Part shown: one piece after another, positions 4,331 to 47,222 of the stretch
How the letters are laid out: each line of letters starts with the position of its first letter
How positions within the stretch are numbered: the first letter of the stretch is position 1
Assembly (NCBI GenBank): GCA_047519465.1
Contig: JAPVTA010000262.1
Location: forward strand, 11,220-75,219
Direction: 5' to 3'
Source: Thermodesulfobacteriota bacterium
GTDB taxonomy: Bacteria > Desulfobacterota > BSN033 > UBA1163
Length of the DNA: 64,000 bases
Position numbers and translations under genes: made by a program
Notes under the pieces: generated by a model
The model's input: the letters and a program-made list of their open reading frames with translations, nothing else
The model's database searches: none
Told to the model about the DNA's origin: nothing

Positions 4331-4460
4331 GTTGTCATTCCCGCCCCGTATCAAGTACGGGGCGGGAAATCCAGAGTTGAAAGGACTGGATTTCCCCTTG
4401 TCAAGCACCCCGTGTCAAGCACGGGGCAGGCTAAGGCAGGCTTATCAAGTCCGGAAAGAC
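4331..4460. repeat. REP/MITE-like intergenic hairpin element, copy 3 (inverted relative to copy 2)
   Basis: GTTGTCATTCCCGCCCCGTATCAAGTACGGGGCGGGAAATCCAG… and GGCAGGCTTATCAAGTCCGG module. Confidence 0.8.
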
Positions 4461-15537: not shown

Positions 15538-15755
15538 AGCGGCCCGAAGACACCAAATCTTCAATCAACGTTAATTATCCTATTTCGCTCTTTCTTCCTG
15601 TAAGCGTGTTTTTCTAACTTCATCTTACAATGTAACATTTCAAATGGAAGTCATTAGGGCAAAGAAATCCATTCTTTTCTCTTTCTTAAGTACTCATATT
15701 GCTTGAATTCATAGCAGGACATAGTTATTTTTAATTTAAAGGGGGAACAAGACCA

Positions 15756-16031
15756 ATGGGAAAGGAGATTAACCCGATGGCACTATATATGGACATCCAC
15801 AGGAATGTTGGAGAAATCCCAAAAGAGAAGATTGATGAAGCTCATAAAAAAGACCTTGCGGTGCAGGGGAAGCATGGAGTTCAGATCACCGACTTTTGGC
15901 ACAGCGAAAAAGATGGGGCTGTTTTCTGCCTTGCCGAAGCTCCCAGCAAGGAGGCCTTTGGAGCCGTCCACCGTGAGGCTCATGGCTTGGAAGCCGACGA
16001 GATTTTCGAAGTTATGGAAGGCCAGAAATAG
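15756..16031 (+). CDS. small DUF4242-like protein
   Basis: 91 aa, MALYMDIH… resembles DUF4242 family; AT-rich promoter region upstream. Confidence 0.35.
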   Translation: MGKEINPMALYMDIHRNVGEIPKEKIDEAHKKDLAVQGKHGVQITDFWHSEKDGAVFCLAEAPSKEAFGAVHREAHGLEADEIFEVMEGQK

Positions 16032-16909
16032 AGAGCTATAAAGTTCAGAGGGGTTCAGGCGATCCAGATAGGGTTTATGCCGCAGAGCGAGAGAGAATCT
16101 TTTTTTCTTCCAGCGACAAGATCATACAGAGTCCGTCCTAGGAAAATCAAGGAAGAGGCTGCTACAGCCTTCAAGTCGTAATCTTCGCCCTCAAAGATCA
16201 TGCTCGGATCAACAATCTACATAGCAGGTGAAAGTTTCAAAATTACCTTTTGCCGGAAAAATTTTGGGGAAGACTGAGAATAACTTCCTCCTACCATCAA
16301 TTCATAGTATAAACTCTGTATGGATCTAGAAACCCTTCGGTAGGTGCAGGAAGTGGCAAGATATGTTGCCTTATTCGGGCGCCGGGTTTCCCAGTATTTG
16401 CGAACCTGGATTTTCGCCATTTTTTCGTAAAATCGGATGATGCCGTTGTGGTCGTTAGCCGCCTTCCCGTCGACTTTCGTGTCTGCATGATTTCCATCAC
16501 TTGGCTGGGCATGGGTAGCGGTACACCTACCTCATGCGCGGTATCAATGGCATCAGCGAGGTCTTGGGGATGGTCCTCACTCGATCGTGAAGGAATGCCT
16601 CTTTACGATCCTGAAGCTGATGGGGCTTTTTGTCCAGGAGCTAAAGATTCATCTTGAATCAAAGATCTTTATCATTGCACTCAACCTTCACCTTAATCCA
16701 CGTCGATTTGCAGGGGAGGCTGTGGAACAATTCCTTTACCTATACGCAAGAAAGAAAAAAACAGGGATAAAACATCTCTTTATCCAGTTCTTCATTTCTA
16801 TAAGAAGGTCTCTCCTGTGAAAATACTAACAAGGTTTTTTTGTTCTTGACAGGGGTTTCCATTTATGATACGAAAACGGATACTGTCAGTTGACGCTTTT
16901 TAAGCAACA

Positions 16910-17473
16910 ATGGACGAAAAACAGATCATCAAGAACATCAAGAAATTTCGTATCAGCAAAAAGATGTCCCTTGACCGATTAGCCAAGCTGACAGGTTTGA
17001 CGAAAGGATATGTCTCTAAGATCGAGAATTCAGATAAGGCCCCGCCTTTTTCGACCCTCATTAAACTTGCGAATGCCCTCGACACAGATATTAGCTTTTT
17101 GATTGCGGAAGATTCCGAAGTGCCGGAAAATATCAACCTATGTATTGTGAGGCGGAGCGAGAGAAAAGAAGTCGTGACAAGAGGAACGCTCTACGGATAT
17201 CATTATGAAGCCTTGGCTCACAAGAAGATCGGGAAAAACATGGAACCGTATATCATCATACCCGCGTTTGATGAAAAAGGGATCTTCTCCCATGAGGGTG
17301 AAGAATTCATGTACATTCTTGAAGGAACACATGAGTTTATGTACGACGGCAAGAAATATTTGTTGAGGGAGGGGGACAGCATCTATTTCGATTCGATCAT
17401 CCCCCATAGCGGCCGAAGTGTTGGGAAGCAAAAAGCTAAGATTTTGGCGATCATGTATTCCTACAAGCGTTAA
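16910..17473 (+). CDS. XRE-family HTH transcriptional regulator with C-terminal cupin domain
   Basis: 187 aa; HTH_3 (LAKLTGLTKGYVSKIEN) plus cupin_2. Confidence 0.8.
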   Translation: MDEKQIIKNIKKFRISKKMSLDRLAKLTGLTKGYVSKIENSDKAPPFSTLIKLANALDTDISFLIAEDSEVPENINLCIVRRSERKEVVTRGTLYGYHYEALAHKKIGKNMEPYIIIPAFDEKGIFSHEGEEFMYILEGTHEFMYDGKKYLLREGDSIYFDSIIPHSGRSVGKQKAKILAIMYSYKR

Positions 17474-17680
17474 TATTCTTTTCGATAATCGTTTCCAATC
17501 TGGAAACGAAAATCTGATTAGTTCCCGGAGATTCCAAAACCGTTGAGGATCTGAGCAAAATCCCTTTTACCACAAGAGATGGAAAGCCAGAGAAGGATCC
17601 ACCTCAGGGGTCTCATGCGTAGGTCTTATAGATTAAAGCTATGAACTTTTGAAATTCCAACTTGATGATTAGGGAGATTT

Positions 17681-19654
17681 ATGGAAGAAAATAAAAGTAA
17701 TTTACTGTATTCACCGGGTGAAGGAAAGGTAAAGAAGACAAACATCATTAAGTTTATGAAATTTGTTAACGAGGCGTATAGTAAAAATATTTCCACGTAT
17801 GAAGAACTTTATCGCTGGTCTGTAGAGGACATACCCAACTTTTGGAGTGCTATATGGGAATTCTGTGGGGTAAAAGCATCTAAGAATTACGAAAAAGTTG
17901 TAGATGATATCACCAGATTTCCCGGTGCAAAATGGTTTATTGGCGCAAGATTGAATTATGCTGAGAATATATTAAGAAGAAGAGATGACCATATAGCTTT
18001 CATATTTAGGGGAGAGAATAAAAAACGAGCTAAGATGACTTATTTTGAACTTTATGACCAAGTAGCAGGTTTTTCAAAATCTTTAAGAGACATAGGGATC
18101 AAGTCAGGAGACAGGGTTGTGGGTTATCTTCCTAATCTAATGGAAGGTATAGTGGCTATGCTGGCTACCTCCAGTATTGGTGCCATATGGGCATCTTGTG
18201 GCCTTGAATTAGGGGTTCAGGGAGCATTGGATCGGTTTAGTCAGATTGAACCTAAGATACTGATCACTTCAGATGGTTATTACTTTAAAGGGAAGGCACT
18301 CAACGCATCTTCTAACGTTGCTCAAGTTGCCAGTGGCATCCCTTCTCTTGAAAAGATTGTGGTCATTCCCTATATAAGCGAAAAACCAAGTTTAAGCTCT
18401 ATTTCTAAGGCCATTTATTATGAAGATTTTATCTCAAAGGGAAAAAACTTAGAAATCCAATTTGAACAATTGCCACCTGATCATCCCCATATAATTCTAT
18501 TTTCCTCAGGAGTTACGGGCAAACCAAAGTGCATCGTCCATGGACTTGCAGGGACATTGATTGTCCATCTAAAGACACATATTTTACATTTCGATTTGTC
18601 GGAAGAGGACATCTCTCTTTTCATCTCAAGTCCAACTTGGATGGTATGGAACGTACAGGTCAGTGCACTTTCAACCAGAGGAAGCCTAGCGCTTTATGAC
18701 GGCAATCCATTTTATCCTGATCACAGCATTATGTGGAAGATCATCCAGGATGAAAAAGTAACATTCTTGGGATGTGGAGCTGGCTTTATCCTTGGATGTA
18801 TGCAACAGGGTATAAAACCTAAGGAGCTATATGATCTTTCAACTTTGAAAGGAATCTTTCAGAGTGGATCCATCCTTCCAGAAGAAGGATTTGAATATGT
18901 CTATAAGGAAGTGAAAGAAGATGTGTATTTTAATTCAGGCTTAGGCGGTACAGATGCCCAAGCTGGTCTTATCGAAGGCACGCCCATTCAACCCCTATAT
19001 TCTGGCGAGATGATGGGACCTGCCTTGGGATTTGCAACCAAAGTCTTCGATGAGAATGGAAATCCCATATACGATAAACCGGGTGAACTAGTCTGTGAAA
19101 AACCATTTCCCTCTGTGCCCTTATATTTCTGGAATGATCCAGATGGCACAAGGTTTATGGAAGCCTATTTTAGTCTATATCCAAATGTTTGGCGTCATGG
19201 GGATTATGTGATCCACCAGAGTAACACAGAGGGTATGACAGCCCTCGGTAGATCTGATTTTACTTTAAAGCCCTCTGGTATTAGATTAGGGCCAGCCGAG
19301 ATCTATAATGTTGTAGAAAAATTTAGTGAAATTTTAGACAGTATTGTGGTAGGACAGTATTGGAAAGGTGATCAGCGTATTCTTTTATTCGTAAAGTTGA
19401 AAGAGGGGTATAGTTTAACAGAGAGGTTGAAACAGGATATTAAATATGCATTAAGAACCCAGGCTTCGCCAAGGCATGTCCCGGATAAAATCATTGAAGT
19501 ACCAGATATCCCATATACCTTCAATATGAAGAAGGTGGAAAGTGCAGTTATGAATGCTGTAAATGGGAAGCCAGTTTTAAATCGGGAGGCATTAATTAAT
19601 CCATCGTGTTTAGACTATTTTGAAAAGATCACAAGGGAAGAATTACAATCCTGA
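17681..19654 (+). CDS. acetoacetyl-CoA synthetase-like AMP-forming ligase
   Basis: 657 aa; ANL superfamily, length and N-terminal region typical of acetoacetate-CoA ligase family. Confidence 0.7.
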   Translation: MEENKSNLLYSPGEGKVKKTNIIKFMKFVNEAYSKNISTYEELYRWSVEDIPNFWSAIWEFCGVKASKNYEKVVDDITRFPGAKWFIGARLNYAENILRRRDDHIAFIFRGENKKRAKMTYFELYDQVAGFSKSLRDIGIKSGDRVVGYLPNLMEGIVAMLATSSIGAIWASCGLELGVQGALDRFSQIEPKILITSDGYYFKGKALNASSNVAQVASGIPSLEKIVVIPYISEKPSLSSISKAIYYEDFISKGKNLEIQFEQLPPDHPHIILFSSGVTGKPKCIVHGLAGTLIVHLKTHILHFDLSEEDISLFISSPTWMVWNVQVSALSTRGSLALYDGNPFYPDHSIMWKIIQDEKVTFLGCGAGFILGCMQQGIKPKELYDLSTLKGIFQSGSILPEEGFEYVYKEVKEDVYFNSGLGGTDAQAGLIEGTPIQPLYSGEMMGPALGFATKVFDENGNPIYDKPGELVCEKPFPSVPLYFWNDPDGTRFMEAYFSLYPNVWRHGDYVIHQSNTEGMTALGRSDFTLKPSGIRLGPAEIYNVVEKFSEILDSIVVGQYWKGDQRILLFVKLKEGYSLTERLKQDIKYALRTQASPRHVPDKIIEVPDIPYTFNMKKVESAVMNAVNGKPVLNREALINPSCLDYFEKITREELQS

Positions 19655-35813: not shown

Positions 35814-36010
35814 GGACACATCCCTCTAATCGTTAACCTCAAAGATTGTCTCAGGGTGAAGAATAGTAGGTGTTGTCGGCAAAAAAAAGAAAATCAATAT
35901 TCAGTTGTCAAAGAACAAGGTAGGGTCATCCGGTTCTGCCTTTATTGTTTCCGAAGAGTAATTCCTGAAATGTTGTTTTTCGATTTCTACTCTTCTATGC
36001 AACCGAAAAT

Positions 36011-36230
36011 CAGCGATAGGAGCAAAATTTCATGAGAAATTTTTTCCTTGACAGTCAACCTATTTAAGAGTATTTTCCAATCATTAGTTCCCACCTGTCT
36101 CTAATCAACCTCATAACCTAAGTTCTAACCTTGTGGGGTGGAGTATGGGGAATTGTCAGAAGATGCCCACACGATAGGCCCCAAGGGAGTTCAATATCCT
36201 CTTGGTGCTCCTTTCTTCGCCCTTCGGACG
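36011..36230 (+). promoter_or_regulatory. conserved promoter-leader element A (TTGACAGTCAA -35 palindrome, -10 TATTTT, leader with 11-codon uORF)
   Basis: -35 36048-36053, 17-nt spacer, -10 36071-36076; about 85% identical over about 100 nt to element B (43797-43912); leader shares blocks and uORF (36145-36177, MGNCQKMPTR) with element C. Confidence 0.55.
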
Positions 36231-36280
36231 CTGGAATTTATAATTGCTGTTAAACGATAATCAGTAAAAAGGAGGTTTAT

Positions 36281-36728
36281 ATGAAAGAGGAAGGCTCTAC
36301 CAAAGCGATCCCTCTCATCGGAGTGTGGAAACTTATCTCCTTTGAAGTCCGCAGAGAAGGTGAAGAACCCTCTTTCCCTTTTGGGAGAGATGCAGGGATT
36401 GTTGATTTATGCGGATGTTGGTCGTTTCTCCGCTCAGTTGATGCGCTCCAATCGACCTAAATTTATTTCCGGTGATCAATTAAAGGGAACCGTTGAGGAG
36501 ATAAATGAGTGTTTTAAGGGATGCATTTCCTATTTCGGAAGGTACGAATTCGATCCAAATGGCGGATTCGTTATTCATCATATTGAAAGTTCTCTATTCC
36601 CAAATTGGGAAGGAACACAAAAGCGATTTGTGGAGATGTCCGATAAACGGATTAGTGTGACTACTCCACCTTTAGAGTGGGGCGGGAAAGGAATTGCGAT
36701 TGGTGCTATGATTTGGGAACGTGTATAG
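36281..36728 (+). CDS. lipocalin-like domain protein, apparently frameshifted (possible pseudogene or sequencing error)
   Basis: Frame from 36281 gives LIGVWKLISFEV…SFPFGRDA then stops; downstream frame (ORF 36342-36728) continues GLLIYADVGRFSAQLM…; shift near 36385. Confidence 0.4.
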
Positions 36729-36864
36729 GTTGGAGTTTTCACTAAAGCCTTCATAATGGACTGAAGATCGAAACCCCGCTTCTCAAAAAGAAAGCGAAGT
36801 TTTCTGTTTTGGATGGAGGTCATTATTGGGGGTATGATTATTCCTAAGCATGAAGGAGGTAATC

Positions 36865-37896
36865 ATGGAAGAGATAAGCGGAAAGACGCAGATGGCAAAG
36901 ATCCGATCCTTCGAAAAAGGTTTTATAGGTATCCATCTTATCAACATTGGCGCCGAACTCGGAATATTTGAAGCGCTCAATAAGGAAAAAGATGGGCTAA
37001 CCGTATCGGACCTGGCTGTAAAGCTCAACCTTCACGAACCTTACCTGAAGATCTGGTGCCAGACTGCCTATCATTACGAAATTCTCGACGCCGATAAGCA
37101 GGGTCGGTTTAGACTTCAGCCTTTTCTTGATGAGATTCTGGGAGACAGAACTCATTTCAGAAACTACCTGGCCAACGTTTCTTTTGATGTCAAAGTCATA
37201 GGAGAAGGCTTTCCGATGGCAATTGAATTATTTCGAACGGGCGGGTACGCGGAAAGCTATAATTCGCCTGAGTTTTCCAAGAGGGCTTACGAACCAACAA
37301 AAAATATATACATGGCTTTTCTTTATATGATTCTCCCGAAAGCCGAGCATTTGAAACAAAGCCTCGAACAAGGAATCCGGTTCTTGGATATCGGCTGCGG
37401 CAATGGTAATTTGATTATCCAATTGGCCCAAGTTTTTGGGAACAGTACATTTGTTGGTGTGAATCCCGATGTGCACGGTATTCAATCAGCCAGATCGACC
37501 ATTTCTCGATTGGGCCTGGGGAACCGTGTGACCGTCGAACAGATGGGAGGGGAAGCGATGTCCTACAAAGACGAATTCGACATGGCGAGTATGGTGGTGA
37601 CACTTCATGAAATCCGACCGGCCGTACGAGAGGAAGTTGTTAAGAAAGCATATCATGCACTAAAAAGGGATGGGCGCCTCCTCATTCTCGACTTTCCTTA
37701 TCCCAGCAAATTGGAGGATTTTAGAAACCCGATATTCGACTTCGCCATAATAGATCAGTTCTGCGAATGTTTCGGAGGATTTATCCACCTCGACAATGAG
37801 CAGCAGAATGAAGTCATCTTGAATGCCGGATTTACAAATATCCAGCGCATGCCCATCGGCAAGGGGATGTTCGATTTCATCACGGCTATAAAATGA
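36865..37896 (+). CDS. class I SAM-dependent methyltransferase
   Basis: SAM-binding motif LDIGCGNGNL; AAGGAGG RBS before ATG 36865. Confidence 0.75.
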   Translation: MEEISGKTQMAKIRSFEKGFIGIHLINIGAELGIFEALNKEKDGLTVSDLAVKLNLHEPYLKIWCQTAYHYEILDADKQGRFRLQPFLDEILGDRTHFRNYLANVSFDVKVIGEGFPMAIELFRTGGYAESYNSPEFSKRAYEPTKNIYMAFLYMILPKAEHLKQSLEQGIRFLDIGCGNGNLIIQLAQVFGNSTFVGVNPDVHGIQSARSTISRLGLGNRVTVEQMGGEAMSYKDEFDMASMVVTLHEIRPAVREEVVKKAYHALKRDGRLLILDFPYPSKLEDFRNPIFDFAIIDQFCECFGGFIHLDNEQQNEVILNAGFTNIQRMPIGKGMFDFITAIK

Positions 37897-38170
37897 GGGA
37901 ACGAGGTCTTCAGGAGGCTCCTTGAGCCAAAGAAAAGATCATGGAAGGGGTGGTGCGGATGCGGTACATAGTTCACGAGTTGTTACTCTCTATTCGCTCC
38001 GCAATACTGAGTTTAAATGAATCCCCTTCACTGAACCGTTTCAGGTGCACTTCGCAAGCTCTTTTTTTGTGGACTGCTTCCTGAAGTCCTCAAGGCGCGT
38101 GCTTAGGCGGCTATGGCAGATTTCAGGTGATAATCCACAAAAAGATAATTTTCACAAAGCCTTTTTTTGA

Positions 38171-38347
38171 TTGACTTGTTCAACATTCTGTGCTACTTGT
38201 CTAATGAAAAATAACTCACCCTAAGTTCGGTAAACCCAACAACATAAACTTTAACCTTCTGGGGGAAGTCATGAGAAGGAGTTTCCAGAAAGTGCCGATA
38301 TAATGGCCCCAAGAGATTTTTGCATCTCTTCGGGGCCTTATTATTTT
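38171..38347 (+). promoter_or_regulatory. conserved leader element C with 10-codon uORF and intrinsic-terminator-like hairpin
   Basis: uORF 38271-38303 (MRRSFQKVPI*); hairpin GGCCCCAAGAGAT-TTTTGC-ATCTCTTCGGGGCC 38305-38337 followed by TTATTATTTT; leader blocks shared with element A. Confidence 0.5.
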
Positions 38348-38481
38348 AGCTCTCAATAAAACTCAACGAGTAATCGATTGGTAGATGAGAACGAAGATAG
38401 AAGTCCGGAGATGAGCCAGCAGGGGTGCGGTCCTATCAATAAAAGATACCCAGCCAAGAACGTTAGATAAGGAGGTGCAAA

Positions 38482-38823
38482 ATGCCAACTCTTTTTGCCA
38501 TATACAATCTGAAAAAAGGGAAAACACCGCAAGAATACGAGAACTTTCTGACCAAAACCAAAATTCCAGCGATGCGGGGAGAATCTTGGATTATTAAAGA
38601 TTTTAAAACCTGGAAGATAGACAAGGTTCTCGCACCTGCGGTTTCCGAGCCTGAGGGAAAGTTGCCCGGGGACCCTCCTTACCAGTATGTAGCTAAAATT
38701 GAGGTCTCGGACTTGAATGCCATGATGAATTTTCTTGGAACAGAGGGAGGCAAAAAACTTATAAAGTCTTGGAGCGAATATATGGATCCCGCAACAATCT
38801 TTACCCTGGGGCGTGAAATGTGA
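38482..38823 (+). CDS. hypothetical small protein
   Basis: 113 aa ORF with RBS (AAGGAGG) preceded by conserved leader element C. Confidence 0.4.
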   Translation: MPTLFAIYNLKKGKTPQEYENFLTKTKIPAMRGESWIIKDFKTWKIDKVLAPAVSEPEGKLPGDPPYQYVAKIEVSDLNAMMNFLGTEGGKKLIKSWSEYMDPATIFTLGREM

Positions 38824-39109
38824 CGACCTATGTACGAGTTTATGCTGAAGAAGGGCCGCACCGATTGTAAGTATTGTTGCTCAGGCAATTTGCCTTGAAG
38901 GTAAATTGTTCTGCTATGAACATTCTGTTTCCGACACCCCGAAAAAGCACGGATTTGGTCCCATATATTCACACGGGATACTTGATTTCTACCAGTAAAC
39001 TTCGGATCAAGATGTCATCGTTGAGCAACGACTCGTAGGTGTTATTTGCAGCGCAGCAGCAATCTTGGAACCGGCGTTGAAATGAAGTAGCGATTAATAT
39101 GAGGACTTT

Positions 39110-39700
39110 TCAAGGGTCGTCGCAGGTGATCAGAGTGATCACATGTCCATTCCCTTCGGCGTGTCTGACAGGGTAAGTCTTTTCTTGATACTTCATCATC
39201 CCATCTTCCTCTCCCACGCTAACTACCTCTACTTCCCGGATAGCTTGAAATAGATCAAGACCCAATGCCTTGGCTGCTGCCTCCTTGGTGGTCCAGGCGC
39301 GAGTGCCGGCCCTCTGAGGGCCCAAACCGGATAGTAAGATAAGGTCTCTTTCCCTAGGTGACATAAAGAGATGCTTCGTCCTTATTACTTTCTCTGAAAC
39401 CATCTCAAGGTCAACGCCAATCCGATGCCTGTACGCAACTGCTGCTATTAGCTGTCCACAATGGGAGACCGAGCAATAGATTCCGCTCTCGTTGAGGCAA
39501 GGCTTTACGTCATCAGGGCTAAGGGTTTCAATCGTCCGGTCAGGCCTGTCCTTTTCTACAAGGTTAAGTTGGCGGGCCAGTCTCTTCAGAGCGACTCTCG
39601 CCGCGGCAAATCCTTTCCGCCTTCGTGGACCCATTCTCATCGCCCTTGCGGCTTCGCGCGGCGTAAAGAGATTCTCCTCGATAAGGGAGATGGTTTCCAT
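39110..39700 (-). CDS. 4'-phosphopantetheinyl transferase (Sfp/EntD-type)
   Basis: Motifs SVSHCG…GVDLE and WTTKEAAAKALG; start assigned to internal Met (METISL) because the ORF N-terminal extension runs through a GC hairpin. Confidence 0.7.
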   Translation of the reverse strand: METISLIEENLFTPREAARAMRMGPRRRKGFAAARVALKRLARQLNLVEKDRPDRTIETLSPDDVKPCLNESGIYCSVSHCGQLIAAVAYRHRIGVDLEMVSEKVIRTKHLFMSPRERDLILLSGLGPQRAGTRAWTTKEAAAKALGLDLFQAIREVEVVSVGEEDGMMKYQEKTYPVRHAEGNGHVITLITCDDP

Positions 39701-39835
39701 ATCGAGGAGGACCATCCCAAGACAGGCCGCCCGCAGCCGCTCGATCCCAGGCCATATGGGGGAATCGTTCGTAAGAGAAGAAGCAGAAATAAAGTCTGGA
39801 CTTATTTCGTTCAAGGCCGAACTCAGCCTCCAGCA

Positions 39836-39882
39836 CCCCTCACCCTCCCCTCTCCCCACTGGGGAGAGGGGAGGGTGAGGGG
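39836..39882. other. perfect 22-bp-stem GC-rich hairpin (CCCCTCACCCTCCCCTCTCCCC-ACT-GGGGAGAGGGGAGGGTGAGGGG)
   Basis: Exact reverse-complement arms with 3-nt loop, in divergent intergenic region between PPTase (-) and thioesterase (+). Confidence 0.8.
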
Positions 39883-40312
39883 GAGCCGAGCCAAATGTCA
39901 AAATTGTTTCTGTGTTTCATCAGTAATGATAGCGATCGAGAGAGGGCCGTGTCAAGATCAGTCAAAGAGAACAGATCAGCGGAGGTAAATCCCGATTTAG
40001 AAAAGAAAGCCCTTTCATCAACGCGTCATTGCGAACACCTGAAAGGGGTGTGGCAGTCTTCGGGAAAAAGCGAGACTGCTTCGTTTCATTCGCAGAGACC
40101 GTTCCCTAAGTCGGGATGAGGGGGCTGCTGTCGCAATTGAAAAAGTATTTATGTTATGATATTTTTAGTTGCCGTTTTGGATGCGTACGTTTTAATACAG
40201 TGGCATTAAATAGAGGTCATTGTGAAGAGTTAAGTGAAGACAGTGGGATCGCTTACAATGATGATGTGAGGGGAATTAATGCGTTCGTTTTAGTTCCCAT
40301 TGAAAATTACTT

Positions 40313-40750
40313 GTGAGAAGAATGCCTCAATCTGTTTCGGCCAGTATCACGATGAAGGTGCCTTATCACGACGTGGACCTGATGCGGGTCGTCTGGCATG
40401 GGAACTACTTAAAATACTTCGAGGTGGCCCGGCAGGCACTTTTTAGAGAATACGGAGTGGACTTACAGCGCTACATGGAGGAGAAAAGGTACGTATTTCC
40501 GATAGTCCGCTCCACGATCAAGCATATCTGGCCTTTGAGATTCGATGAAGAGTTCACGTGCACGGCAATGCTCAAGGAAGCTCGCGTTAGGATCGTCTTA
40601 AATTTCGACATAAAGTTAACCTCTAACGGAAGACTCTGCGCCAAAGGCTGGACCGAGCAGGCAGCGGTTCTATTACCGGAGATGGAAATAGTCTTTCAGA
40701 TCCCCGAGGAAATCCAGAAGGCTTTCTACGAGGATGAACAACTGAAATGA
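40313..40750 (+). CDS. acyl-CoA/acyl-ACP thioesterase (4HBT/YbgC-like hot-dog)
   Basis: 145 aa; YHDVDLMRVVWHGNYLKYFE matches 4HBT active-site region. Confidence 0.75.
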   Translation: MRRMPQSVSASITMKVPYHDVDLMRVVWHGNYLKYFEVARQALFREYGVDLQRYMEEKRYVFPIVRSTIKHIWPLRFDEEFTCTAMLKEARVRIVLNFDIKLTSNGRLCAKGWTEQAAVLLPEMEIVFQIPEEIQKAFYEDEQLK

Positions 40751-40781
40751 GAACAGAGCGCACGCGGGAAATTTCATAAAA

Positions 40782-42017
40782 ATGGGAAATAAGAGAAGAG
40801 TTGTCGTTGTCGGCATGGGGATACGGTCTCCGATCGGCAATACTCCAAACGAATTAGTAAAATCGCTCAAGGAACGCCGAAGTGGCATCTCCATCATGTC
40901 CGAGTGGGAAGGCGTAAAGAATCTACGCACCCGTGTGGCCGGGTTGTGTGATATTGAAGGCGAGGAAGAATCAATCCAGCGGCAGTACCGGCGCAGCATG
41001 GGCAGGGTGGCCATGCTGGCAGCCCTCTCTGCCATCGACGCAGTGAAGGCATCCGGCCTGAGCGAAGAGGAGGTCGCTTCACCGGCCTGCGGCGTCTCTT
41101 ACGGATCGACCGAAGGGAGCGTCAGAAGTCAGATGGAATATATCGGTAACATGATTCAGAACCGCTCCCTCGAAGGCATACCTCCATCTTGGTACTTGAA
41201 ATGCATGAGTCACACGTGTGCAGGCAATCTTTCCATTCTATTCCATACGAGAGGGCCTTTCATAGCATCCTGCCCGGCCTGTGTTTCGGGTTCCCAGGGG
41301 ATCGGCTTCGGTTATGAGGCGATCAAGGCCGGAAAGGCGGACATCATGATCACAGGTGGGGCAGACGAGGTCGACATTCTCTCTGCCGCCGTGTTCGACC
41401 TGATGCTGGCCACATCATCCAATTACAATGACCGGCCGTCAGAAACTCCTCGGCCTTTTGATGAAAAGAGGGATGGCCTAGTCGTAGCCGAAGGGGGAGC
41501 AACGTTGATCCTTGAGGAGTACGAGCGGGCGAAGAAACGAGGGGCCCCCATTCTTGGTGAGATTGAAGGCTTCTGGACAAATGGAAGCGGCGTACACCTT
41601 ACAAACTCGGATGCCCGGTCTATGGAAGAGTGCTTGCTCGCTGCGTTAAAAGACGCCGGGCGCAGCCCGGATGAAATCCAGTATGTGAACGCGCATGCAA
41701 CCGGTACAATCCACGGAGACGAAGTCGAGGCAACGGTGATCAATAAGATCTACGGGCCGGGTGTCCCGACCGCCTCCCTCAAAGGCTACATGGGCCACAC
41801 CATGGGAGCCTGTGGAGCGATTGAAGCCATTGCCACTCTTCTCATGATGCGGGAAGGCTTCATCTCTTCTACCTTAAATCTTGAGAACCCAGACCCAGCC
41901 CTGCCGCCGTTAAACCATGTGATTGGCGAATCGCGCGACCAACGGTCTCGTCTTGCCGCCAGCAACAATTTCGCCTTTGGCGGAGTCAATACTTCCTTAG
42001 TTTTGAGATTGATCTAA
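40782..42017 (+). CDS. beta-ketoacyl-ACP synthase I/II (FabF/FabB-like)
   Basis: 411 aa; PACVSG, NAHATGT, GHTMGACG catalytic motifs. Confidence 0.9.
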   Translation: MGNKRRVVVVGMGIRSPIGNTPNELVKSLKERRSGISIMSEWEGVKNLRTRVAGLCDIEGEEESIQRQYRRSMGRVAMLAALSAIDAVKASGLSEEEVASPACGVSYGSTEGSVRSQMEYIGNMIQNRSLEGIPPSWYLKCMSHTCAGNLSILFHTRGPFIASCPACVSGSQGIGFGYEAIKAGKADIMITGGADEVDILSAAVFDLMLATSSNYNDRPSETPRPFDEKRDGLVVAEGGATLILEEYERAKKRGAPILGEIEGFWTNGSGVHLTNSDARSMEECLLAALKDAGRSPDEIQYVNAHATGTIHGDEVEATVINKIYGPGVPTASLKGYMGHTMGACGAIEAIATLLMMREGFISSTLNLENPDPALPPLNHVIGESRDQRSRLAASNNFAFGGVNTSLVLRLI

Positions 42018-42091
42018 GAGTAGGCTTTCTCCGTCATTCTTTGAACGAAGGCGTCTCTTCCTAACCCGGCATAGCCAGAACCAAACACGGG

Positions 42092-42230
42092 TTGAAATCC
42101 CAATTTCCAAATCCCAAATTCCAAATAATTTCCAATCACCAAATGACCAAATTCCGATTCAAATCCGTTTGGGTCATTCGAAATTTGAATTTGGATATTG
42201 CTTGGGATTTGGTGCTTCGACTGAAGTCTT
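42092..42230. repeat. low-complexity CCAAAT/ATTTGG-rich palindromic region between convergent genes (probable bidirectional terminator region)
   Basis: Multiple TCCCAAATTCCAAAT repeats mirrored by ATTTGAATTTGGAT…TTGGGATTTGG; internal hairpin TGACCAAA…TTTGGGTCA. Confidence 0.5.
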
Positions 42231-42956
42231 TTAATTCCTTCGCCTCGTGGGGACCAGCACCCTCATTGCGATCAGCCTGGCAAAAGTCTTAGTGTTACGC
42301 CAGAAATCGAGCCATGGCCGGAAATGGGAGACCCTCTCCTCACGAGGCCCATAGATGGCATGGACAGGCGCCTCGATAATGGGAATCCCATGCCAAACCG
42401 CAAGAACCAGAACCTCCACCTCAAACTGGTATCTCCTTGCCCTGGTCCCAAGGCGGAGGGTTTCAGGAAGAGGATAAACGCGAAATCCGGACTGCGCATC
42501 GGAAAGCCATCTTCCGCATGAGGTCCAGACCCAGAAGTTGGCAAATCTTCGGCCCCAGCGGCTGGTCCAAGGTACATTCCCTTTTCCCATCCCCACCCGT
42601 TTCCCTATCACCAGGGGGCGCTGCCCTTCTGGGACCGTGCAGATCAGGGAGATCAAGGAAGGAATATCTTCCGCATCGTGCTGTCCGTCGGCATCAATCG
42701 TGATCGCCCAATCCGCGAACTGGAGAGCTGCGGCAAACCCTGTAAGCAAAGAAGCTCCCTTTCCCTGATTCCTCTCATGGCGTATCACTGTGACACCAGA
42801 AAGGGAAGCGAGGACATCGGAAGTGGAGTCTGTCGATCCATCATCCACCACAATCACAGGCAGCCTGAGTTGGAGACACTTTTCAACGACCCCACGCACC
42901 CGTGTCCCATGGTTATAAGCAGGAATGACAATGGCACACCGAAAAGGTATATCCAT
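42231..42956 (-). CDS. family 2 glycosyltransferase (polyprenyl-phosphate / DPM1-ArnC-like, soluble short form)
   Basis: 241 aa; IVIPAYNH…VVDDGSTD and DADGQHD (DxD) motifs. Confidence 0.8.
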   Translation of the reverse strand: MDIPFRCAIVIPAYNHGTRVRGVVEKCLQLRLPVIVVDDGSTDSTSDVLASLSGVTVIRHERNQGKGASLLTGFAAALQFADWAITIDADGQHDAEDIPSLISLICTVPEGQRPLVIGKRVGMGKGNVPWTSRWGRRFANFWVWTSCGRWLSDAQSGFRVYPLPETLRLGTRARRYQFEVEVLVLAVWHGIPIIEAPVHAIYGPREERVSHFRPWLDFWRNTKTFARLIAMRVLVPTRRRN

Positions 42957-42977
42957 GAGATGATACAGCCAAACCTA

Positions 42978-43586
42978 TCAAAACGAGATCCCGAGAAGAA
43001 CGGTGTGTGTATTCAATCCTCTGTCACTTGTATCAAACGGTTCGGAGATATGGTACAAACGGTATTCTATTCTCAATGCGGTTCCCCGACCGATGTTAAA
43101 GAGCATGCCTGCACCTGCATTAACAAATCCTGCAAAATGCTGATCTCCTAGAAGAGGTGCCTCTGAACGGCCACGGTGAAGTCTTTCGCCAGCGCTATCA
43201 TAACCGAGCCCTCCCCCAATAAGGAGAAACAACGAACCCCACCTTTCTTGGATAGGCTTGAAAACAGTATTCTGACTGACCCCCAGAAAATAGACATCAT
43301 GCATCTTGGGGATGTCATAGTAAAAAAAGTTTCCTTCGAATTCTAAGTCCCAATACTTCCAATTTTTACGGAGAGGGAAACTAATACGGGGTAGAAATCC
43401 ATATTCCCTCATGTGGGTTTTAGTGTAGAATGCGTCACCCGTCCCCCCTAAAATGGAAAAACTCCACCTTATTTTTTTCTCCTCCTCCCCATATGAATAG
43501 GAGACTGTTGATCCAATGATCACAAGGAGGATTAAAGTGGAGACCAAATAACTCTTATACGAAACCCCAATGCAACTCTTTTTCAC
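42978..43586 (-). CDS. PagL-like outer-membrane acyloxyacyl hydrolase (lipid A deacylase family), tentative
   Basis: 202 aa; signal/TM N-terminus, beta-barrel-like alternating pattern, C-terminal YHISE…NTH…GISF resembling the PagL H-x-S catalytic region. Confidence 0.45.
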   Translation of the reverse strand: MKKSCIGVSYKSYLVSTLILLVIIGSTVSYSYGEEEKKIRWSFSILGGTGDAFYTKTHMREYGFLPRISFPLRKNWKYWDLEFEGNFFYYDIPKMHDVYFLGVSQNTVFKPIQERWGSLFLLIGGGLGYDSAGERLHRGRSEAPLLGDQHFAGFVNAGAGMLFNIGRGTALRIEYRLYHISEPFDTSDRGLNTHTVLLGISF

Positions 43587-43796
43587 TTACCCTCCCTTAA
43601 ATGAACGTGCCCATCATACAATAAATCGGGACTGACAGGCAATTGTATTTCCTGATTTTCCCCGCCCGTAGGGCGGGAGGCTTCAACCAGAATATATGAG
43701 CCGTCCCCGCAACATTCCCAATCAGGTTAGTGACACAATGTTCCTTCCTGTAATCGTGTTTTTCAATTTTTCCCATTCCATACAACATTTCAACTG

Positions 43797-43912
43797 CAAA
43801 TCAGCAATAGGAGTGAAATTTCAGAGAAAATTTTTACACAGAGAAAATTTTTGCCTTGACAGTCAACAAATTTAAGGGTATTTCCTAAGCATTGGTTTCC
43901 ACTTGTCTCTAA
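43797..43912 (+). promoter_or_regulatory. conserved promoter element B upstream of STAND-SARP regulator
   Basis: -35 TTGACA 43856-43861 in palindrome TTGACAGTCAA, 17-nt spacer, -10 TATTTC 43879-43884; tandem 15-nt duplication CAGAGAAAATTTTT x2 at 43821-43855. Confidence 0.55.
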
Positions 43913-43994
43913 TCTTATTGGAATCTGATGCTTCTCTTGAGTTCTTTTAATTGTGTTCTGAAATCATCCCAATAGGAACGGAAGCGGGTGAATC

Positions 43995-46900
43995 ATGGGC
44001 AAGCTAATCCGCCCTATCCTCACAGATGTCTTCTTAAGGAAGCGGCTGTTTCTTATGCTGAATCAGATGCGAAAACAGCCAGCTATATGGGTCTCCGGGC
44101 CCGCCGGTTGTGGGAAGACCACCCTGGTAAACAGCTACTTGGAGGTTCGAAGAATTCCTTGCCTGTGGTACGAGGTAGACGAGGGCGACTCCGATCTGGC
44201 AACTTTTTTCTATTACCTGGGTCAAGCTGTAAAAAAGGCTGAGCCCAGAAAAAGGATGGTCTTCCCCCTTCTTACATCCGAATATCTGCAAGATATCCCA
44301 ACTTTTACGAAGCGCTATTTTGAAAAGCTCTATGAAACGCTGCGAATCCCCAGTGTAGTTGTATTCGATAATTACCAAGAGGTATCTGCGGAATCACCAT
44401 TTCATGAGGCAATCCTGAAGGGCCTCTCCAATCTTCCACCGGGGATAAATGCCATAGTAATCAGCCGCAGCAGCCCCCCATCTCCCTTCGCCAGGCTCCG
44501 AGCTAATCATCTTATGGAAATTCTTGCCTGGAAAGAACTGCGCTTGACTGTAGAAGAGTCAGCTGGGATCGTCAAGCTGCGGAGTAAGCAGAAACTCTCC
44601 AAAGAGACAATGGCACAACTGCATAAGGCTGCGGACGGCTGGGCAGCGGGACTGGTGCTGATGTTGGAAAGATCTCAGATTGAAGATATTGAACCTCAAA
44701 AAGCTGGAGCAGTCAGGCCCGAAGAGGTCTTTGACTATTTTGCCAGTGAAATCTTCGATACAGCGGACAAGGAGGTTCAGGAATTTCTTCTGAAGACATC
44801 CATTTTGCCCAGGATGACCTCAAGGATGGCAGAAGAGCTGACCGGCCTCTCTTCGGCGAGTCGCCTCCTATCCATGCTAAGCCGCAATAACTACTTCACC
44901 GAGAAACGTATCCATTCCGAGCCTATCTACCAGTATCATCCGTTGTTCAGGGATTTTCTCCTTTCACGGGCCAAAGAAACATTTCCTCGAGAGAGTCTTT
45001 TGGCTTTGTTCCGTCGTGCGGCCTCCCTTCTTGACGACGATGGTCAGATCGAAGCTGCAGTTTCACTCCTTCACGAGGCTAGCGACTGGGAGGGAATGGT
45101 TCGTTTAATAATGAAGCATGCCCCATCGATGGTGGAGCAGGGACGAAGTCGCCCGCTCGAAGAGTGGCTGAATTGTCTTCCAAAAGAGATTATGGAGAAC
45201 AATCCCTGGCTTCTATTCTGGATGGGCATATGCAACCTGTCATTCTCTCCTCCCCAAAGTCAACCCTATTTTGAGGAAGCTTATCAGAGATTTGAAAGCC
45301 AAGGGGATACCGTCGGAATCATTCACGCCTGCTGGGGAATGGTTCAGTCGATCTATATTATGGAGGCCGATTATACACCTCTGGACCGTTGGATTTCTGT
45401 GCTTGAAGAACTTGGGCGTACAATCAAGGAGTTTCCTTCTGAAGAAATCGAACTTCGGTTTGCGTCTGCTATGTTTTCTGCACTGGTATGTAGACGACCC
45501 CAGCATCCTGAGATTGAGATATGGGCGAACCGCGCCGTTTCCCTTGCCGAACACTCTTCAGACCTAACCCTCAAATTTCAAACTATATCTACAGAGGCAA
45601 CCTATCGGATCAGCATCGGAGACTTCACGAAATCCCTGCTGGCCATGAACTCTCTGAAGAAAATGGCTCAATCCAGAGAGTCTTCCCCTTTAAATCAAAT
45701 TCTATTAGCCGTCTTGGAGGCTTACTATAATAACCTTTCGGGATTGCCTGAAAAATGCCTAAAGGCTGTATCCGATGTCTTGGAGTTATCCCGAACGACC
45801 GGCATCCACACGTTTGATAATGCTGTTCTATATCAAGGCGTATCGAGTGCGCTGATGATTAGCGATTACAAAACGGCTTCCAACTATCTGGAACAGATGG
45901 GTTCGTCTTTAAGCCATGCCAGGCCGTGGGATGTCGCCATTTACCACAGCATAAAAACCGATGAAGCTATGTTTCGGGAAGACATCGAACAAGCCGCGTA
46001 TCATATCGACCTTGGGACGAAAATGAGGCTTGAAATAGGATTTGCTCTCGTTACGGGCCGGTGTCATATGCAGAATGCCTACGTGATGCATGCCCTGGGA
46101 AGGCATCGAGAAGCGTCAGAGTATCTAGCCCATGCAGTTGATTTCAGCCGCAGCGTAAAGGGGCCAAACAACGAATATGCTGCAATGTTGTTTGAGTCAC
46201 TTTTTGCCTTCGATCAAGGGGAAGAAGAATCGGGGTCGGCTTTGCTCAGGAAGTCCTTTGCCCTTGGGAAGGAGAGAGGATATTTTGGCGCCTGGGGCCC
46301 CCTGCCTTCCGGGATGGCCAAGCTTTGTATCAAAGCCCTCCAGGCCGGGATCGAGGTCGAATACACGCAGGAACTCATTCGAAGGCTTCATATAGCTCCG
46401 GATCAATCTGCAATCCATTTAGAAAACTGGCCGTGGTATTTGAAAGTATTTACTCTAGGCCAGTTTGAACTGTTAAAAGATGGGAAACCAATCCAGTTTT
46501 CCAGAAAGATTCAGCAAAAACCTCTTTCGTTGCTCAAGGCATTAATTGCCTTGGGAGGACGAGAGGTGAAAGAAGAACAGATAGCGGATTTTCTTTGGCC
46601 GGAGCCAGATGGGGACGCTGCTCATAATGCTTTTCTTTCTGCCCTGCACCGGCTCCGACAGTTGGTTGGTTATGAAAAAGCTCTCCATTTAAGGGAAGGA
46701 AAACTGACCATGGACGATCGATACTTCTGGGTCGATGCCTGGGCACTGGAACGTATTTGGAAGCAGGCGGACGCCCAGAGGAAGGAAGGGCAGATCGACG
46801 TCGCCGTCCAAATGAACGAAAAAGCCGTCGAGATGTATAGGGGACATTTTCTTAGCGGAGAAATCGAGCAGCCTTGGATGGTATCCCTCCGTGAACGTTT

Positions 46901-47222
46901 GAGAAGCAAGTACTTGAGCTGTGTAAACCGTTTGGGCCAGCACTGGCTGCAAGTTGGAAATGGAGAAAAAGCCATAGAATGCTACCAGCGGGGTTTGGAT
47001 GCGGACGACCTGGCCGAAGAATTTTACCAGGGCCTCATGACTTGCTATCAACGCCTGAACCGAGAAACGGAAGCAAGGGCAGTCTACCATCGCTGCCGGA
47101 AAAACCTTTCCTCAGCCCTTGGAATCGAACCATCGGCAAAAACGGTAGCCATTTATGAATCCATAATAAAAAAGGACAATGTTCATGGTCAAATGGCAAG
47201 AGCGAATCAAAGGCTAAACTGA
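43995..47222 (+). CDS. large transcriptional regulator: N-terminal STAND/AAA ATPase, helical repeat region, C-terminal SARP module (OmpR-type wHTH + BTAD)
   Basis: 1075 aa; Walker A GPAGCGKTT near N-terminus; C-terminal VFTLGQFELLKDGKPIQF…ADFLWPE (wHTH) followed by BTAD-like region. Confidence 0.7.
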   Translation: MGKLIRPILTDVFLRKRLFLMLNQMRKQPAIWVSGPAGCGKTTLVNSYLEVRRIPCLWYEVDEGDSDLATFFYYLGQAVKKAEPRKRMVFPLLTSEYLQDIPTFTKRYFEKLYETLRIPSVVVFDNYQEVSAESPFHEAILKGLSNLPPGINAIVISRSSPPSPFARLRANHLMEILAWKELRLTVEESAGIVKLRSKQKLSKETMAQLHKAADGWAAGLVLMLERSQIEDIEPQKAGAVRPEEVFDYFASEIFDTADKEVQEFLLKTSILPRMTSRMAEELTGLSSASRLLSMLSRNNYFTEKRIHSEPIYQYHPLFRDFLLSRAKETFPRESLLALFRRAASLLDDDGQIEAAVSLLHEASDWEGMVRLIMKHAPSMVEQGRSRPLEEWLNCLPKEIMENNPWLLFWMGICNLSFSPPQSQPYFEEAYQRFESQGDTVGIIHACWGMVQSIYIMEADYTPLDRWISVLEELGRTIKEFPSEEIELRFASAMFSALVCRRPQHPEIEIWANRAVSLAEHSSDLTLKFQTISTEATYRISIGDFTKSLLAMNSLKKMAQSRESSPLNQILLAVLEAYYNNLSGLPEKCLKAVSDVLELSRTTGIHTFDNAVLYQGVSSALMISDYKTASNYLEQMGSSLSHARPWDVAIYHSIKTDEAMFREDIEQAAYHIDLGTKMRLEIGFALVTGRCHMQNAYVMHALGRHREASEYLAHAVDFSRSVKGPNNEYAAMLFESLFAFDQGEEESGSALLRKSFALGKERGYFGAWGPLPSGMAKLCIKALQAGIEVEYTQELIRRLHIAPDQSAIHLENWPWYLKVFTLGQFELLKDGKPIQFSRKIQQKPLSLLKALIALGGREVKEEQIADFLWPEPDGDAAHNAFLSALHRLRQLVGYEKALHLREGKLTMDDRYFWVDAWALERIWKQADAQRKEGQIDVAVQMNEKAVEMYRGHFLSGEIEQPWMVSLRERLRSKYLSCVNRLGQHWLQVGNGEKAIECYQRGLDADDLAEEFYQGLMTCYQRLNRETEARAVYHRCRKNLSSALGIEPSAKTVAIYESIIKKDNVHGQMARANQRLN

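Follow-up and report, generated by a model that had tools for sequence, protein, structure and literature searches.

Introduction

Leader-peptide attenuators are mostly known as one-off devices in model bacteria, where they serve amino-acid operons and antibiotic-resistance genes. In pyrBI of Escherichia coli, a single locus, UTP is sensed through polymerase pausing in U-rich tracts, and the sequence of the 44-codon leader peptide is not conserved. At msrD, a streptococcal macrolide-resistance gene of the ABC-F type, a ribosome stalled on a 6-codon leader (MsrDL) obstructs a Rho-independent terminator without any antiterminator (PMC10314930), and related very short leaders are found at yxjB/tlrB and vmlR of Bacillus subtilis (PMC6851288). 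Two further papers deal with ligand-dependent arrest peptides, which detect molecules in the upper part of the ribosomal exit tunnel and regulate the genes downstream (PMC8429421, PMC12121999). Here we describe a family of promoter-leader cassettes, first seen in a 64,000-nucleotide (nt) stretch of DNA from a Thermodesulfobacteriota bacterium (GenBank assembly GCA_047519465.1, contig JAPVTA010000262.1, positions 11,220 to 75,219); the whole of this stretch is called the window. Three related elements had been noticed in it by an earlier inspection without database searches (the sequence-only reading): A, upstream of a lipocalin-like gene, B, upstream of a large regulator gene, and C, upstream of a gene for a 113-amino-acid protein.

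As judged by comparison of its many copies, the full cassette appears to begin with a conserved block of 75 nt, followed in this order by a strong promoter of the sigma-70 type, a 5' region rich in CA, a Shine–Dalgarno (SD) sequence, a short upstream open reading frame (uORF) and a terminator hairpin; the gene, which has an SD of its own, comes about 100 nt later. We propose, with a probability of about 0.6, that the leaders are ribosome-dependent transcription attenuators of the MsrDL type, carried by a promoter-leader cassette that is common in Thermodesulfobacteriota. Each leader combines a short open reading frame (ORF), preceded by an SD, with an intrinsic terminator that stands ahead of the gene and within reach of a ribosome on the uORF.

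Among known systems, those of the MsrDL type seem to be the closest. As in MsrDL, in which the peptide sequence matters, a very short ORF stands right before a Rho-independent terminator. The present peptides are, however, of the MKRSFQKVPI type, no resistance genes lie downstream and no inducer is known; many copies per genome precede unrelated genes, whereas MsrDL serves one operon; in half of the present copies the presumed pause site carries no stop codon; and a helix (P1), described below, sequesters the SD around the start codon. With the trpL, hisL, leuL, pheL and thrL attenuators, in which read-through is set by the position of the ribosome, our leaders share a leader peptide and an intrinsic terminator. 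Unlike these, they offer no support for a 2:3-type antiterminator, their genes are not biosynthetic, no Rfam leader model matches them, and no run of regulatory codons was found in about 150 leader peptides; without codon runs and antiterminator covariation, they fail the defining tests of a classical amino-acid attenuator. The leader ORF reaches up to or through the terminator as in pyrBI, where a closely trailing ribosome prevents termination. A short conserved nascent peptide is a feature in common with ErmBL/ErmCL, TnaC, SpeFL and ToiL, and its length at the presumed pause, 9–10 residues, matches that of peptides acting as sensors in the upper exit tunnel. There is no sequence resemblance to any of these, arrest is presumed in our case, and TnaC and ToiL work via Rho, the Erm leaders for the most part at the level of translation. 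Conservation of amino acids near the presumed pause, as in arrest sensors, is found at K7 and P9, codons 5–8 being constrained by P1 as well.

A leader family repeated across Thermodesulfobacteriota

We fetched 80 metagenome loci encoding the 113-amino-acid family; a degenerate pattern of SD, ATG and a CAGAAGGTGCC core, applied to one genome of each species, gave at least 119 stretches. Leader copies were called with nhmmer in 205 fetched loci (1.17 Mb in total; labelled L001–L205). This retrieved at least 174 non-overlapping copies, at least 169 of them distinct. Hidden Markov models (HMMs) built without window sequences match C at E 4e-31 and A at E 1e-15; because they derive only from other genomes, the similarity of A and C is far beyond chance. 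These HMMs gave no further match in the window below E 0.004, and searches with A/B, A/C, family and family-minus-window HMMs found the leader in A and C only, while the HMM of the upstream block matched in the window at A, B, C and a fourth site at 15.6 kb only.

Almost all true leader matches come from metagenome-assembled genomes (MAGs) of Thermodesulfobacteriota or of organisms labelled 'delta proteobacterium', and the hosts include Syntrophales, Syntrophaceae, Smithella, Syntrophobacterales, Desulfobacterales and Desulfatiglandales. Chance matches to the pattern (Neobacillus, Paracoccaceae and others) had no HMM match. Copies on two short contigs binned as Promethearchaeota (L205) and Dehalococcoidales (L192) probably lie on mis-binned Thermodesulfobacteriota DNA. 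Single MAGs hold several copies, with lower bounds of at least 10 (MFD04408.bin.1.124), at least 8, at least 7, at least 6 and at least 6, and five copies can lie within 8 kb (L096, also L125). Multiple copies per genome before co-oriented genes are what an attenuator regulon predicts, and the observed arrangement fits. The sequence-only reading had envisaged a small regulon of attenuator leaders and had suggested looking for further copies and for conservation of the uORF in related genomes. The further copies exist and the peptide is conserved across the family; comparison thus supports the regulon reading, and the leaders with uORF, terminator and promoter form a real, conserved family with many members per genome, which is large and phylum-wide rather than small and confined to three sites.

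Among the loci fetched, the closest relative of element A lies in another Thermodesulfobacteriota MAG (L203). The upstream regions of L003 and L004 carry a C-like promoter (TTGACT..TTAAGAGTATTTT), a uORF reading MTRFIQKVPI* and a terminator with compensatory changes (GGCTCC../..GGAGCC), and that of L002 has the uORF MRRWGYQKMGM* and a terminator unlike the others. Tandem leaders stand before one 113-amino-acid gene in L029 (1189–1443) and L035 (610–866), where a copy of an 11-codon class (MRKWGYQKMVM*) comes first and one of the 10-codon class follows.

The cassette is apparently undescribed so far. Rfam 15 gave no family at gathering score in the window and nothing at the leaders up to E 10, and its application to 15 leader-rich loci (114 kb) returned one tRNA only. 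The best Rfam leader model, Phe_leader, reached 21.9 bits against a gathering score of 55, on the promoter and not on the leader. Searches of the literature on these taxa for leader peptides, attenuation and uORFs turned up no description of the leader family.

The uORF and its peptide

In the 10-codon class (n=137), the SD (CUGGAGG; CCTTCTGGAG) is fixed 6–7 nt ahead of the start codon; 122 copies begin with ATG and 15 with GTG. The consensus peptide over the first 10 codons is M-[KR]-[RW]-x-[FY]-[QR]-K-[VM]-P-[ILMT], with K7 in 136/137 and P9 in 130/137 copies, V or M at position 8 and I, M, L or T at position 10. The conserved QK[VM]P of the sequence-only reading thus stood up, although it understates the peptide and misses that the position of the stop varies. 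Exchanges at other positions are conservative (K/R at position 2, F/Y at position 5). All four codons are used for Pro9 (CCG/CCC/CCA/CCT, 49/42/32/8), with an entropy of 0.17, 0.26 and 1.80 bits at codon positions 1, 2 and 3, respectively. Since Pro9 is retained with a free third codon position and lies outside P1, selection appears to act on the amino acid. Insertions and deletions within the uORF keep the frame: 11 copies, which make up the 11-codon class, have gained 3 nt and element A has lost 3 nt.

From the SD spacing, the conservation of K7 and P9, the free third position of the proline codon and the in-frame insertions and deletions, the uORF is very probably translated. Selection on Pro9 and K7 argues further that the nascent chain matters. 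We also considered a precursor of a ribosomally synthesized and post-translationally modified peptide, with a conserved leader and a variable core; this was rejected, as half of the ORFs have no more than 10 residues and what follows in the others is translated hairpin.

Terminator hairpin and helix P1

The hairpin behind the uORF has a median minimum free energy (MFE) of -23 kcal/mol and 12–20 bp across the family, and RNAalifold on 145 copies found compensatory changes in all 8 consensus pairs. Its GC core starts 7–10 nt past the first base of the proline codon. With the footprint size known for ribosomes, the hairpin start falls within the footprint of a ribosome at codons 9–11. Of the copies with a stop at codon 11, 72% have 5 or more U among the 9 nt behind the stem.

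Helix P1, first picked out by eye, pairs the SD region AACCUUCUGG with uORF codons 5–8 CCAGAAGGU and encloses the start codon. In the same 145 copies, 86% of cells are paired and there are 20 double changes where shuffles give 9.4 +/- 2.6, which is weak covariation. The alternation of Q and R at codon 6 corresponds to A-U and G.U opposite the same U in P1. Folds of the whole leader are unexceptional (z 0.0 for A, -1.2 for C), and RNAalifold recovers the terminator only. A reading of the hairpins as integron attC sites was rejected: the units have promoter, SD and ORF, and R'/R'' core sites are not evident.

Anatomy of the elements in the window

The features of the three elements and the fourth site are as follows.

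35954–36022, plus strand: far-upstream conserved block of A (CTTCCTGAA...CAAC..AAATCAGC); HMM from 23 non-window copies, E 4.5e-8.
36048–36076, plus strand: promoter of A, with -35 TTGACA (36048–36053) inside TTGACAGTCAA, a 17-nt spacer and -10 TATTTT (36071–36076); 10/12 match.
36125–36144, plus strand: SD region of A (CTAACCTTGTGGGGTGGAGT), equivalent of the 5' strand of helix P1 by family alignment; leader HMM match at 36117–36216, E 1e-15.
36145–36177, plus strand: uORF of A, MGNCQKMPTR*, divergent and, with the frame kept, one codon short of the family consensus.
36178–36219, plus strand: hairpin and weak U-rich tail of A, a degenerate terminator; -17.2 kcal/mol, z -2.5.
36281–37896, plus strand: genes behind A, lipocalin-like (PF13924, frameshifted), then a methyltransferase (36850–37896).
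38068–38145, plus strand: far-upstream conserved block of C; HMM from non-window copies, E 1.2e-12.
38161–38189, plus strand: promoter of C, with -35 TTGACT (38161–38166), a 17-nt spacer and -10 TACTTG (38184–38189).
38253–38293, plus strand: helix P1 of C in the MFE fold, AACCTTCTGG (38253–38262, overlapping the SD) pairing with CCAGAAAGT (38285–38293, uORF codons 5–8).
38271–38303, plus strand: uORF of C, MRRSFQKVPI*, with SD GGGGGAAG 6 nt upstream.
38305–38348, plus strand: predicted intrinsic terminator of C, arms GGCCCCAAGAGAT/ATCTCTTCGGGGCC (38305–38337) with 13 pairs and one bulged C, then UUAUUAUUUUA; MFE -23.7 kcal/mol, z -4.6.
38415–38481, plus strand: conserved block just 5' of the SD of the 113-amino-acid gene (GTGCGGNCCTATCAATAAAAG...AGCCAA..AAGGAGGTG).
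38482–38823, plus strand: 113-amino-acid gene behind C; no Pfam family.
43739–43813, plus strand: far-upstream conserved block of B; HMM from non-window copies, E 1.2e-14; 75% identity to 15591–15653.
43822–43852, plus strand: tandem duplication of B, CAGAGAAAATTTTT at 43822–43835 and 43839–43852, period 17 nt, which appears as a 17-nt insertion relative to A.
43856–43914, plus strand: promoter of B, TTGACA (43856–43861), 17 nt, TATTTC (43879–43884), plus about 30 nt of 5' untranslated region in common with A.
43995–47222, plus strand: regulator gene behind B, a MalT-like STAND NTPase with TPR and a C-terminal SARP module.
15590–16031, plus strand: fourth site, with far-upstream block (15590–15656, E 9e-10), promoter-like TTGAAT (15703)-17-TATTTT (15726) and a 91-amino-acid SCO4226-like gene (15756–16031).

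The features described for these elements are all present where they had been placed. The similarity of A and B, put at about 85% over about 100 nt, is 86% over 70 nt without gaps (36037–36106 against 43845–43914), and local alignment extends it to 36000–36106 against 43791–43914, with one 17-nt insertion in B. The promoters of the form TTGACA-17-TATTT(T/C), with the -35 box inside the dyad TTGAC-A-GTCAA, are found at both places; TTGACAGTCAA occurs exactly twice in the window, at 36048 and 43856, and each occurrence holds a promoter -35. The second leader block common to A and C aligns over 36107–36191 and 38233–38319 and contains both uORFs. Two details needed correction: the terminator of C, described as a perfect 13-bp hairpin with a U-tract, is there with its bulge, and the tandem duplication in B, given as 15 nt, has a unit of 14 nt.

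C is a typical full copy of the cassette. Its uORF start codon sits in the loop of P1, and its hairpin begins one base past the uORF. Element A probably is a decaying copy, because its uORF is divergent, its weak terminator has a U tract of poor quality, and the downstream gene is frameshifted. In this PF13924 gene, the frame opened by the ATG at 36281 ends at 36458 and the domain goes on in an ORF at 36342–36728, so that it is either a pseudogene or split by an assembly error; a PF13924 protein is also encoded behind a leader copy elsewhere. In element B, no uORF and no terminator were found downstream of the promoter, where the leader HMM gives no match, and the 15.6-kb site likewise has no uORF leader. 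These two are copies with block and promoter only.

Promoters and the far-upstream block

In 56/156 copies, a TTGAC-like -35 and a TAnnnT -10 precede the HMM start by a constant distance of about 75 nt (consensus caAtTTTnCnCTTGACa). The promoters fall into subfamilies with differing spacers, among them GGCAATTTTCCCCTTGACTnnCCATGAGGTTAAGAGTATTTT, AAAATCMGCTTGACAGAATTTGCAG.. and the type of A, B, L203 and L161 with TTGACAGTCAA. The dyad TTGAC-A-GTCAA is found only in these last four, with near-forms in L195 and L127. As it is restricted to one promoter subfamily, it does not qualify as the general operator that the sequence-only reading had seen in the palindromic -35. The promoter of C is preceded by AAAAGATAATTTTCACAA, which it has in common with L012, L013, L007 and L010, the L012 subfamily being TTGACT-17-TATTTG. 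In L006 (1990–2320), a homologue of the 113-amino-acid gene with 85% identity keeps the C-type promoter region (AAAAGATAATTTTCACAA..TTGACTT), and a different leader of about 250 nt, which no Rfam family matches, takes the place of the uORF leader.

The far-upstream block of 75 nt (aCTTCTTCCTGaAgTc...CAACATTTCAAa.g.AAATCAgCAA) lies 15–45 nt upstream of the -35 in A, B, C and the 15.6-kb site and has a sharp 5' edge at CTTCTTCCTG. It has 62 matches in the fetched loci, of which 40 are followed by a uORF leader and the rest mostly precede another promoter and gene. The cassette is thus modular, since block and promoter also occur without the uORF leader (15.6 kb, B). The block could be the binding region for the transcription factor of the regulon. 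Examined by eye, it showed no fit to sigma-54 -24/-12, IHF or CRP/FNR sites, and a divergent small ORF within it (MLHSEGKYQKQHFRK...) was rejected, its ATG not being conserved and having no SD. The AAATTTC/AATTTTCC repeats upstream of the -35 are spaced 13–17 nt apart, varying between copies, and a clear 11-bp phasing is not definable.

Downstream genes and the STAND-SARP regulator

A co-oriented ORF of at least 55 codons begins within 450 nt of the leader in 165/174 copies, and the median gap to a co-oriented ORF of at least 80 codons is 108 nt; the gene calls of the source records in L001 and L003 agree with the leader position. The downstream ORFs form at least 88 unrelated clusters. These include the 113-amino-acid family, class III adenylate cyclases with TPR or CHASE2 domains, alpha/beta hydrolases and a carboxylesterase, GYD, tautomerase, cupin, SnoaL, ABM, CMD, DUF3303 and lipocalin-like proteins, periplasmic binding proteins, FIST proteins, an aldo-keto reductase and many small proteins without assignment. 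For the 113-amino-acid protein we found 485 homologues, and a structure model of low confidence (pLDDT 63, TM about 0.6) tentatively suggests a resemblance to dimeric alpha+beta barrels (EthD/OAC-like). The conserved block before the SD of its gene (GTGCGGCCCTATCAATAAAAG...AGCCAAAA) recurs in L001 (9940–10000), L003 (9585–9649) and L006 (2255–2321), with or without a uORF leader; no consensus structure was predicted for it.

The regulator behind B consists of a MalT-like NOD/STAND NTPase (residues 3–406; 8bob, E 2e-30), followed by TPR, and a C-terminal region (residues 817–1070) that aligns to the SARP DNA-binding and BTAD region of AfsR (8hvr, 8k60). In its domains it resembles both the MalT-type STAND and the SARP/AfsR activators, in inverted order, with the SARP part at the C-terminus. 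SARPs act at sites overlapping the -35 box, and in the cassette promoters conservation spans the -35 and the bases immediately before it. Homologues of the regulator are encoded directly behind full uORF leaders in L164 (87% and 58% identity, in two segments) and L112 (44%), so the regulator gene belongs to the set; its autoregulation would be plausible.

Between C and B lie genes for a 4'-phosphopantetheinyl transferase (39110–39901, minus strand), a thioesterase (40313–40750), a ketoacyl synthase (40782–42017) and a family-2 glycosyltransferase (42231–42956, minus strand). Such genes are of a lipid or polyketide type and, taken with the SARP-type regulator, suggest a biosynthetic context. 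The region after the ketoacyl synthase gene (42017–42231) holds a CCAAAT-rich, low-complexity inverted repeat, and positions 42202–42236 are 77% identical to the 5' untranslated region of B (43918–43952), just past the A/B similarity. Elsewhere in the window, GC-rich palindromes resembling repetitive extragenic palindromic sequences occur at 2911–2942 and 4337–4368 (ATTCCCGCCCCGTA..TACGGGGCGGGAA) and at 43655–43685 (CCCCGCCCGTAGGGCGGG). Next to the fourth site, about 0.9 kb (16030–16900, approximately) has no ORF of at least 100 codons, the GC content being 0.42 in 16001–18000 against about 0.50 in the window, and a gene for an HTH_3 and cupin regulator (16910–17473) follows a near-consensus promoter (TTGACA at about 16848).

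The proposed ribosome-dependent attenuator and its alternatives

We picture the mechanism as follows. By default the terminator would form and transcripts would end at about 140 nt, and P1 would restrict the loading of ribosomes onto the uORF. A ribosome that dwells at K-V/M-P-I, with proline in the P site and a rare AUA isoleucine or a stop codon in the A site, would cover the 5' arm of the hairpin, so that no terminator forms and RNA polymerase enters the gene. Such direct occlusion has been demonstrated experimentally for MsrDL/msrD (PMC10314930). The conserved peptide implies that the pause would depend on the nascent chain; a tunnel ligand, the supply of tRNA-Ile(AUA), or release-factor or ABC-F activity are possible inputs. 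Transcription initiation at the set would probably be controlled by a dedicated factor, for which the STAND-SARP regulator, itself a member, is the obvious candidate. A bolder version, which we regard as tentative, holds that a single nascent peptide, M(K/R)(R/W)x(F/Y)(Q/R)K(V/M)PI, present at least 10 times per genome in uncultured Thermodesulfobacteriota, arrests the ribosome by the terminator in response to one cellular signal, for instance a metabolite or antibiotic bound in the tunnel. It would thereby gate a complete regulon, in which small alpha+beta-barrel enzymes, hydrolases, binding proteins and adenylate cyclases are joined by the regulon's own STAND-SARP activator.

Several points weigh against an attenuator of this kind. 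The mechanism, with termination, read-through and stalling alike, is inferred from comparison. A stop at codon 11 is present in only 63/137 copies (46%), so that the first ten residues are conserved and not the end of the ORF. A good U tract follows the stem in only 49% of the copies that read on, and the 11-codon subclass (MRRWGYQKM[IVG][MK]*) has no proline. Ile10 is AUA in 78 of 84 isoleucine codons, compared with 16% AUA among the isoleucine codons of 20 window genes, and Ser4 is AGU in 54 of 57 serine codons; as read from the alignment, these biases show constraint at the nucleotide level. P1 accounts equally well for part of the uORF conservation, namely codons 5–8 and the alternation of Q and R. 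An antiterminator formed by the SD region and the 5' arm of the terminator was tried and rejected: the consensus duplex reaches -12.4 kcal/mol against -7.6 with shuffled arms, but permutation across copies gives -12.7, and with permuted duplexes as good as the native ones there is no copy-specific covariation to support it. Direct occlusion, in turn, needs tight coupling of transcription and translation or a pause of RNA polymerase. Finally, the downstream genes share no function that would name a signal.

Much of this would also be expected if the leaders sensed coupling or ribosome availability with no peptide-specific arrest, any ribosome that gets onto the RNA ahead of P1 closure and trails RNA polymerase through the uORF, or in half of the copies through the hairpin, stopping termination much as in pyrBI, and the conserved codons reflecting P1, the SD-like AAGGAG and the A-tract of the terminator rather than the peptide. 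We consider this, the principal competitor of the attenuator proposed here, unlikely. It would explain why P1 is complementary in 86% of cells and covers codons 5–8 including the Q/R position, why the AUA and AGU biases (78/84 and 54/57) point to selection on RNA, why an 11-codon class can do without proline, and why the stop position is not conserved, the remaining ORFs running into the hairpin (..KVPIRSLQG..) and ending at arbitrary places (68/138 uORFs read into it). It does not explain Pro9, kept in 130/137 copies through all four codons (49/42/32/8) outside P1, which speaks for selection on the amino acid; nor does it account for the exchanges at positions 2 (K/R) and 5 (F/Y), which are conservative as protein, or for the preservation of the frame by insertions and deletions.

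Each unit might instead be an independent small transcript, a trans-acting small RNA or the messenger of a micropeptide, and the downstream genes might have their own promoters. An attenuator-derived trans-acting RNA and peptide are known in rnTrpL/peTrpL of Sinorhizobium (PMC6614838, PMC7968998), and a self-contained unit of promoter, ORF and terminator with a transcript of about 140 nt would suit such a role, as would the tandem units in L029 and L035 and the proximal upstream block that the 113-amino-acid gene keeps even at leaderless loci. We hold it to be improbable, given that the units are co-oriented with the next gene at a leader-like distance, precede 88 different gene clusters rather than forming free-standing loci, and in 100/156 copies lie between genes without a promoter of their own; a 10-residue product with an arbitrary C-terminal extension is, moreover, unlikely to be a functional peptide.

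Control could also lie with a protein, for instance a CsrA-type dimer on two GGA motifs that blocks translation of the uORF and so brings about termination, with the ribosome as effector only. CsrA dimers favour paired GGA sites, and a GGA in the SD (CUGGAGG) is indeed followed about 18 nt downstream, at nearly invariant spacing, by AAGGAG in or next to the loop of P1; heterogeneous targets are typical of global post-transcriptional regulators. GGA is expected in any SD, however, no protein partner has been identified, and the conservation of Pro9 and K7 is left unexplained. Such a protein would fit the ribosome-dependent attenuator as an added layer; as an alternative to it we judge it very improbable.

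That the cassette is a selfish repeat of the MITE type (miniature inverted-repeat transposable element) or the remnant of a mobile element, with an outward promoter and no regulated function, is barely credible in spite of its high copy number, the sharp 5' edge of the far-upstream block, the varied combinations of its parts (block and promoter without leader, leader without promoter) and the clustered, sometimes tandem copies, since the copies always point toward a gene start, retain SD, start, frame and hairpin pairing under purifying selection in 169 diverged sequences, are too widely divergent for recent transposition bursts, and at the cassette ends revealed no terminal inverted repeats or target duplications in a check by eye.

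Significance

To our knowledge, known arrest peptides each control one operon. The present leaders differ in combining a conserved peptide with recurrence, many times per genome, before dozens of unrelated genes, and they occur in syntrophs and sulfate reducers that dominate in the environment but are uncultured, and about whose gene regulation hardly anything is known. Many small proteins to which no function has been assigned, such as the 113-amino-acid family and the GYD, SnoaL, ABM and SCO4226-like proteins, are probably co-controlled in these organisms. If the ribosome-dependent mechanism holds, the leader could serve in metagenomes as a sequence tag marking the limits of an entire regulon, ribosome biochemists would gain a new arrest-peptide candidate, and a compact, portable promoter-attenuator module would be at hand; with the regulon tied to a STAND-SARP regulator, its signal would become experimentally approachable. 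If true, a switch based on an arrest peptide and acting on the scale of a regulon would be a new way to organise gene control.

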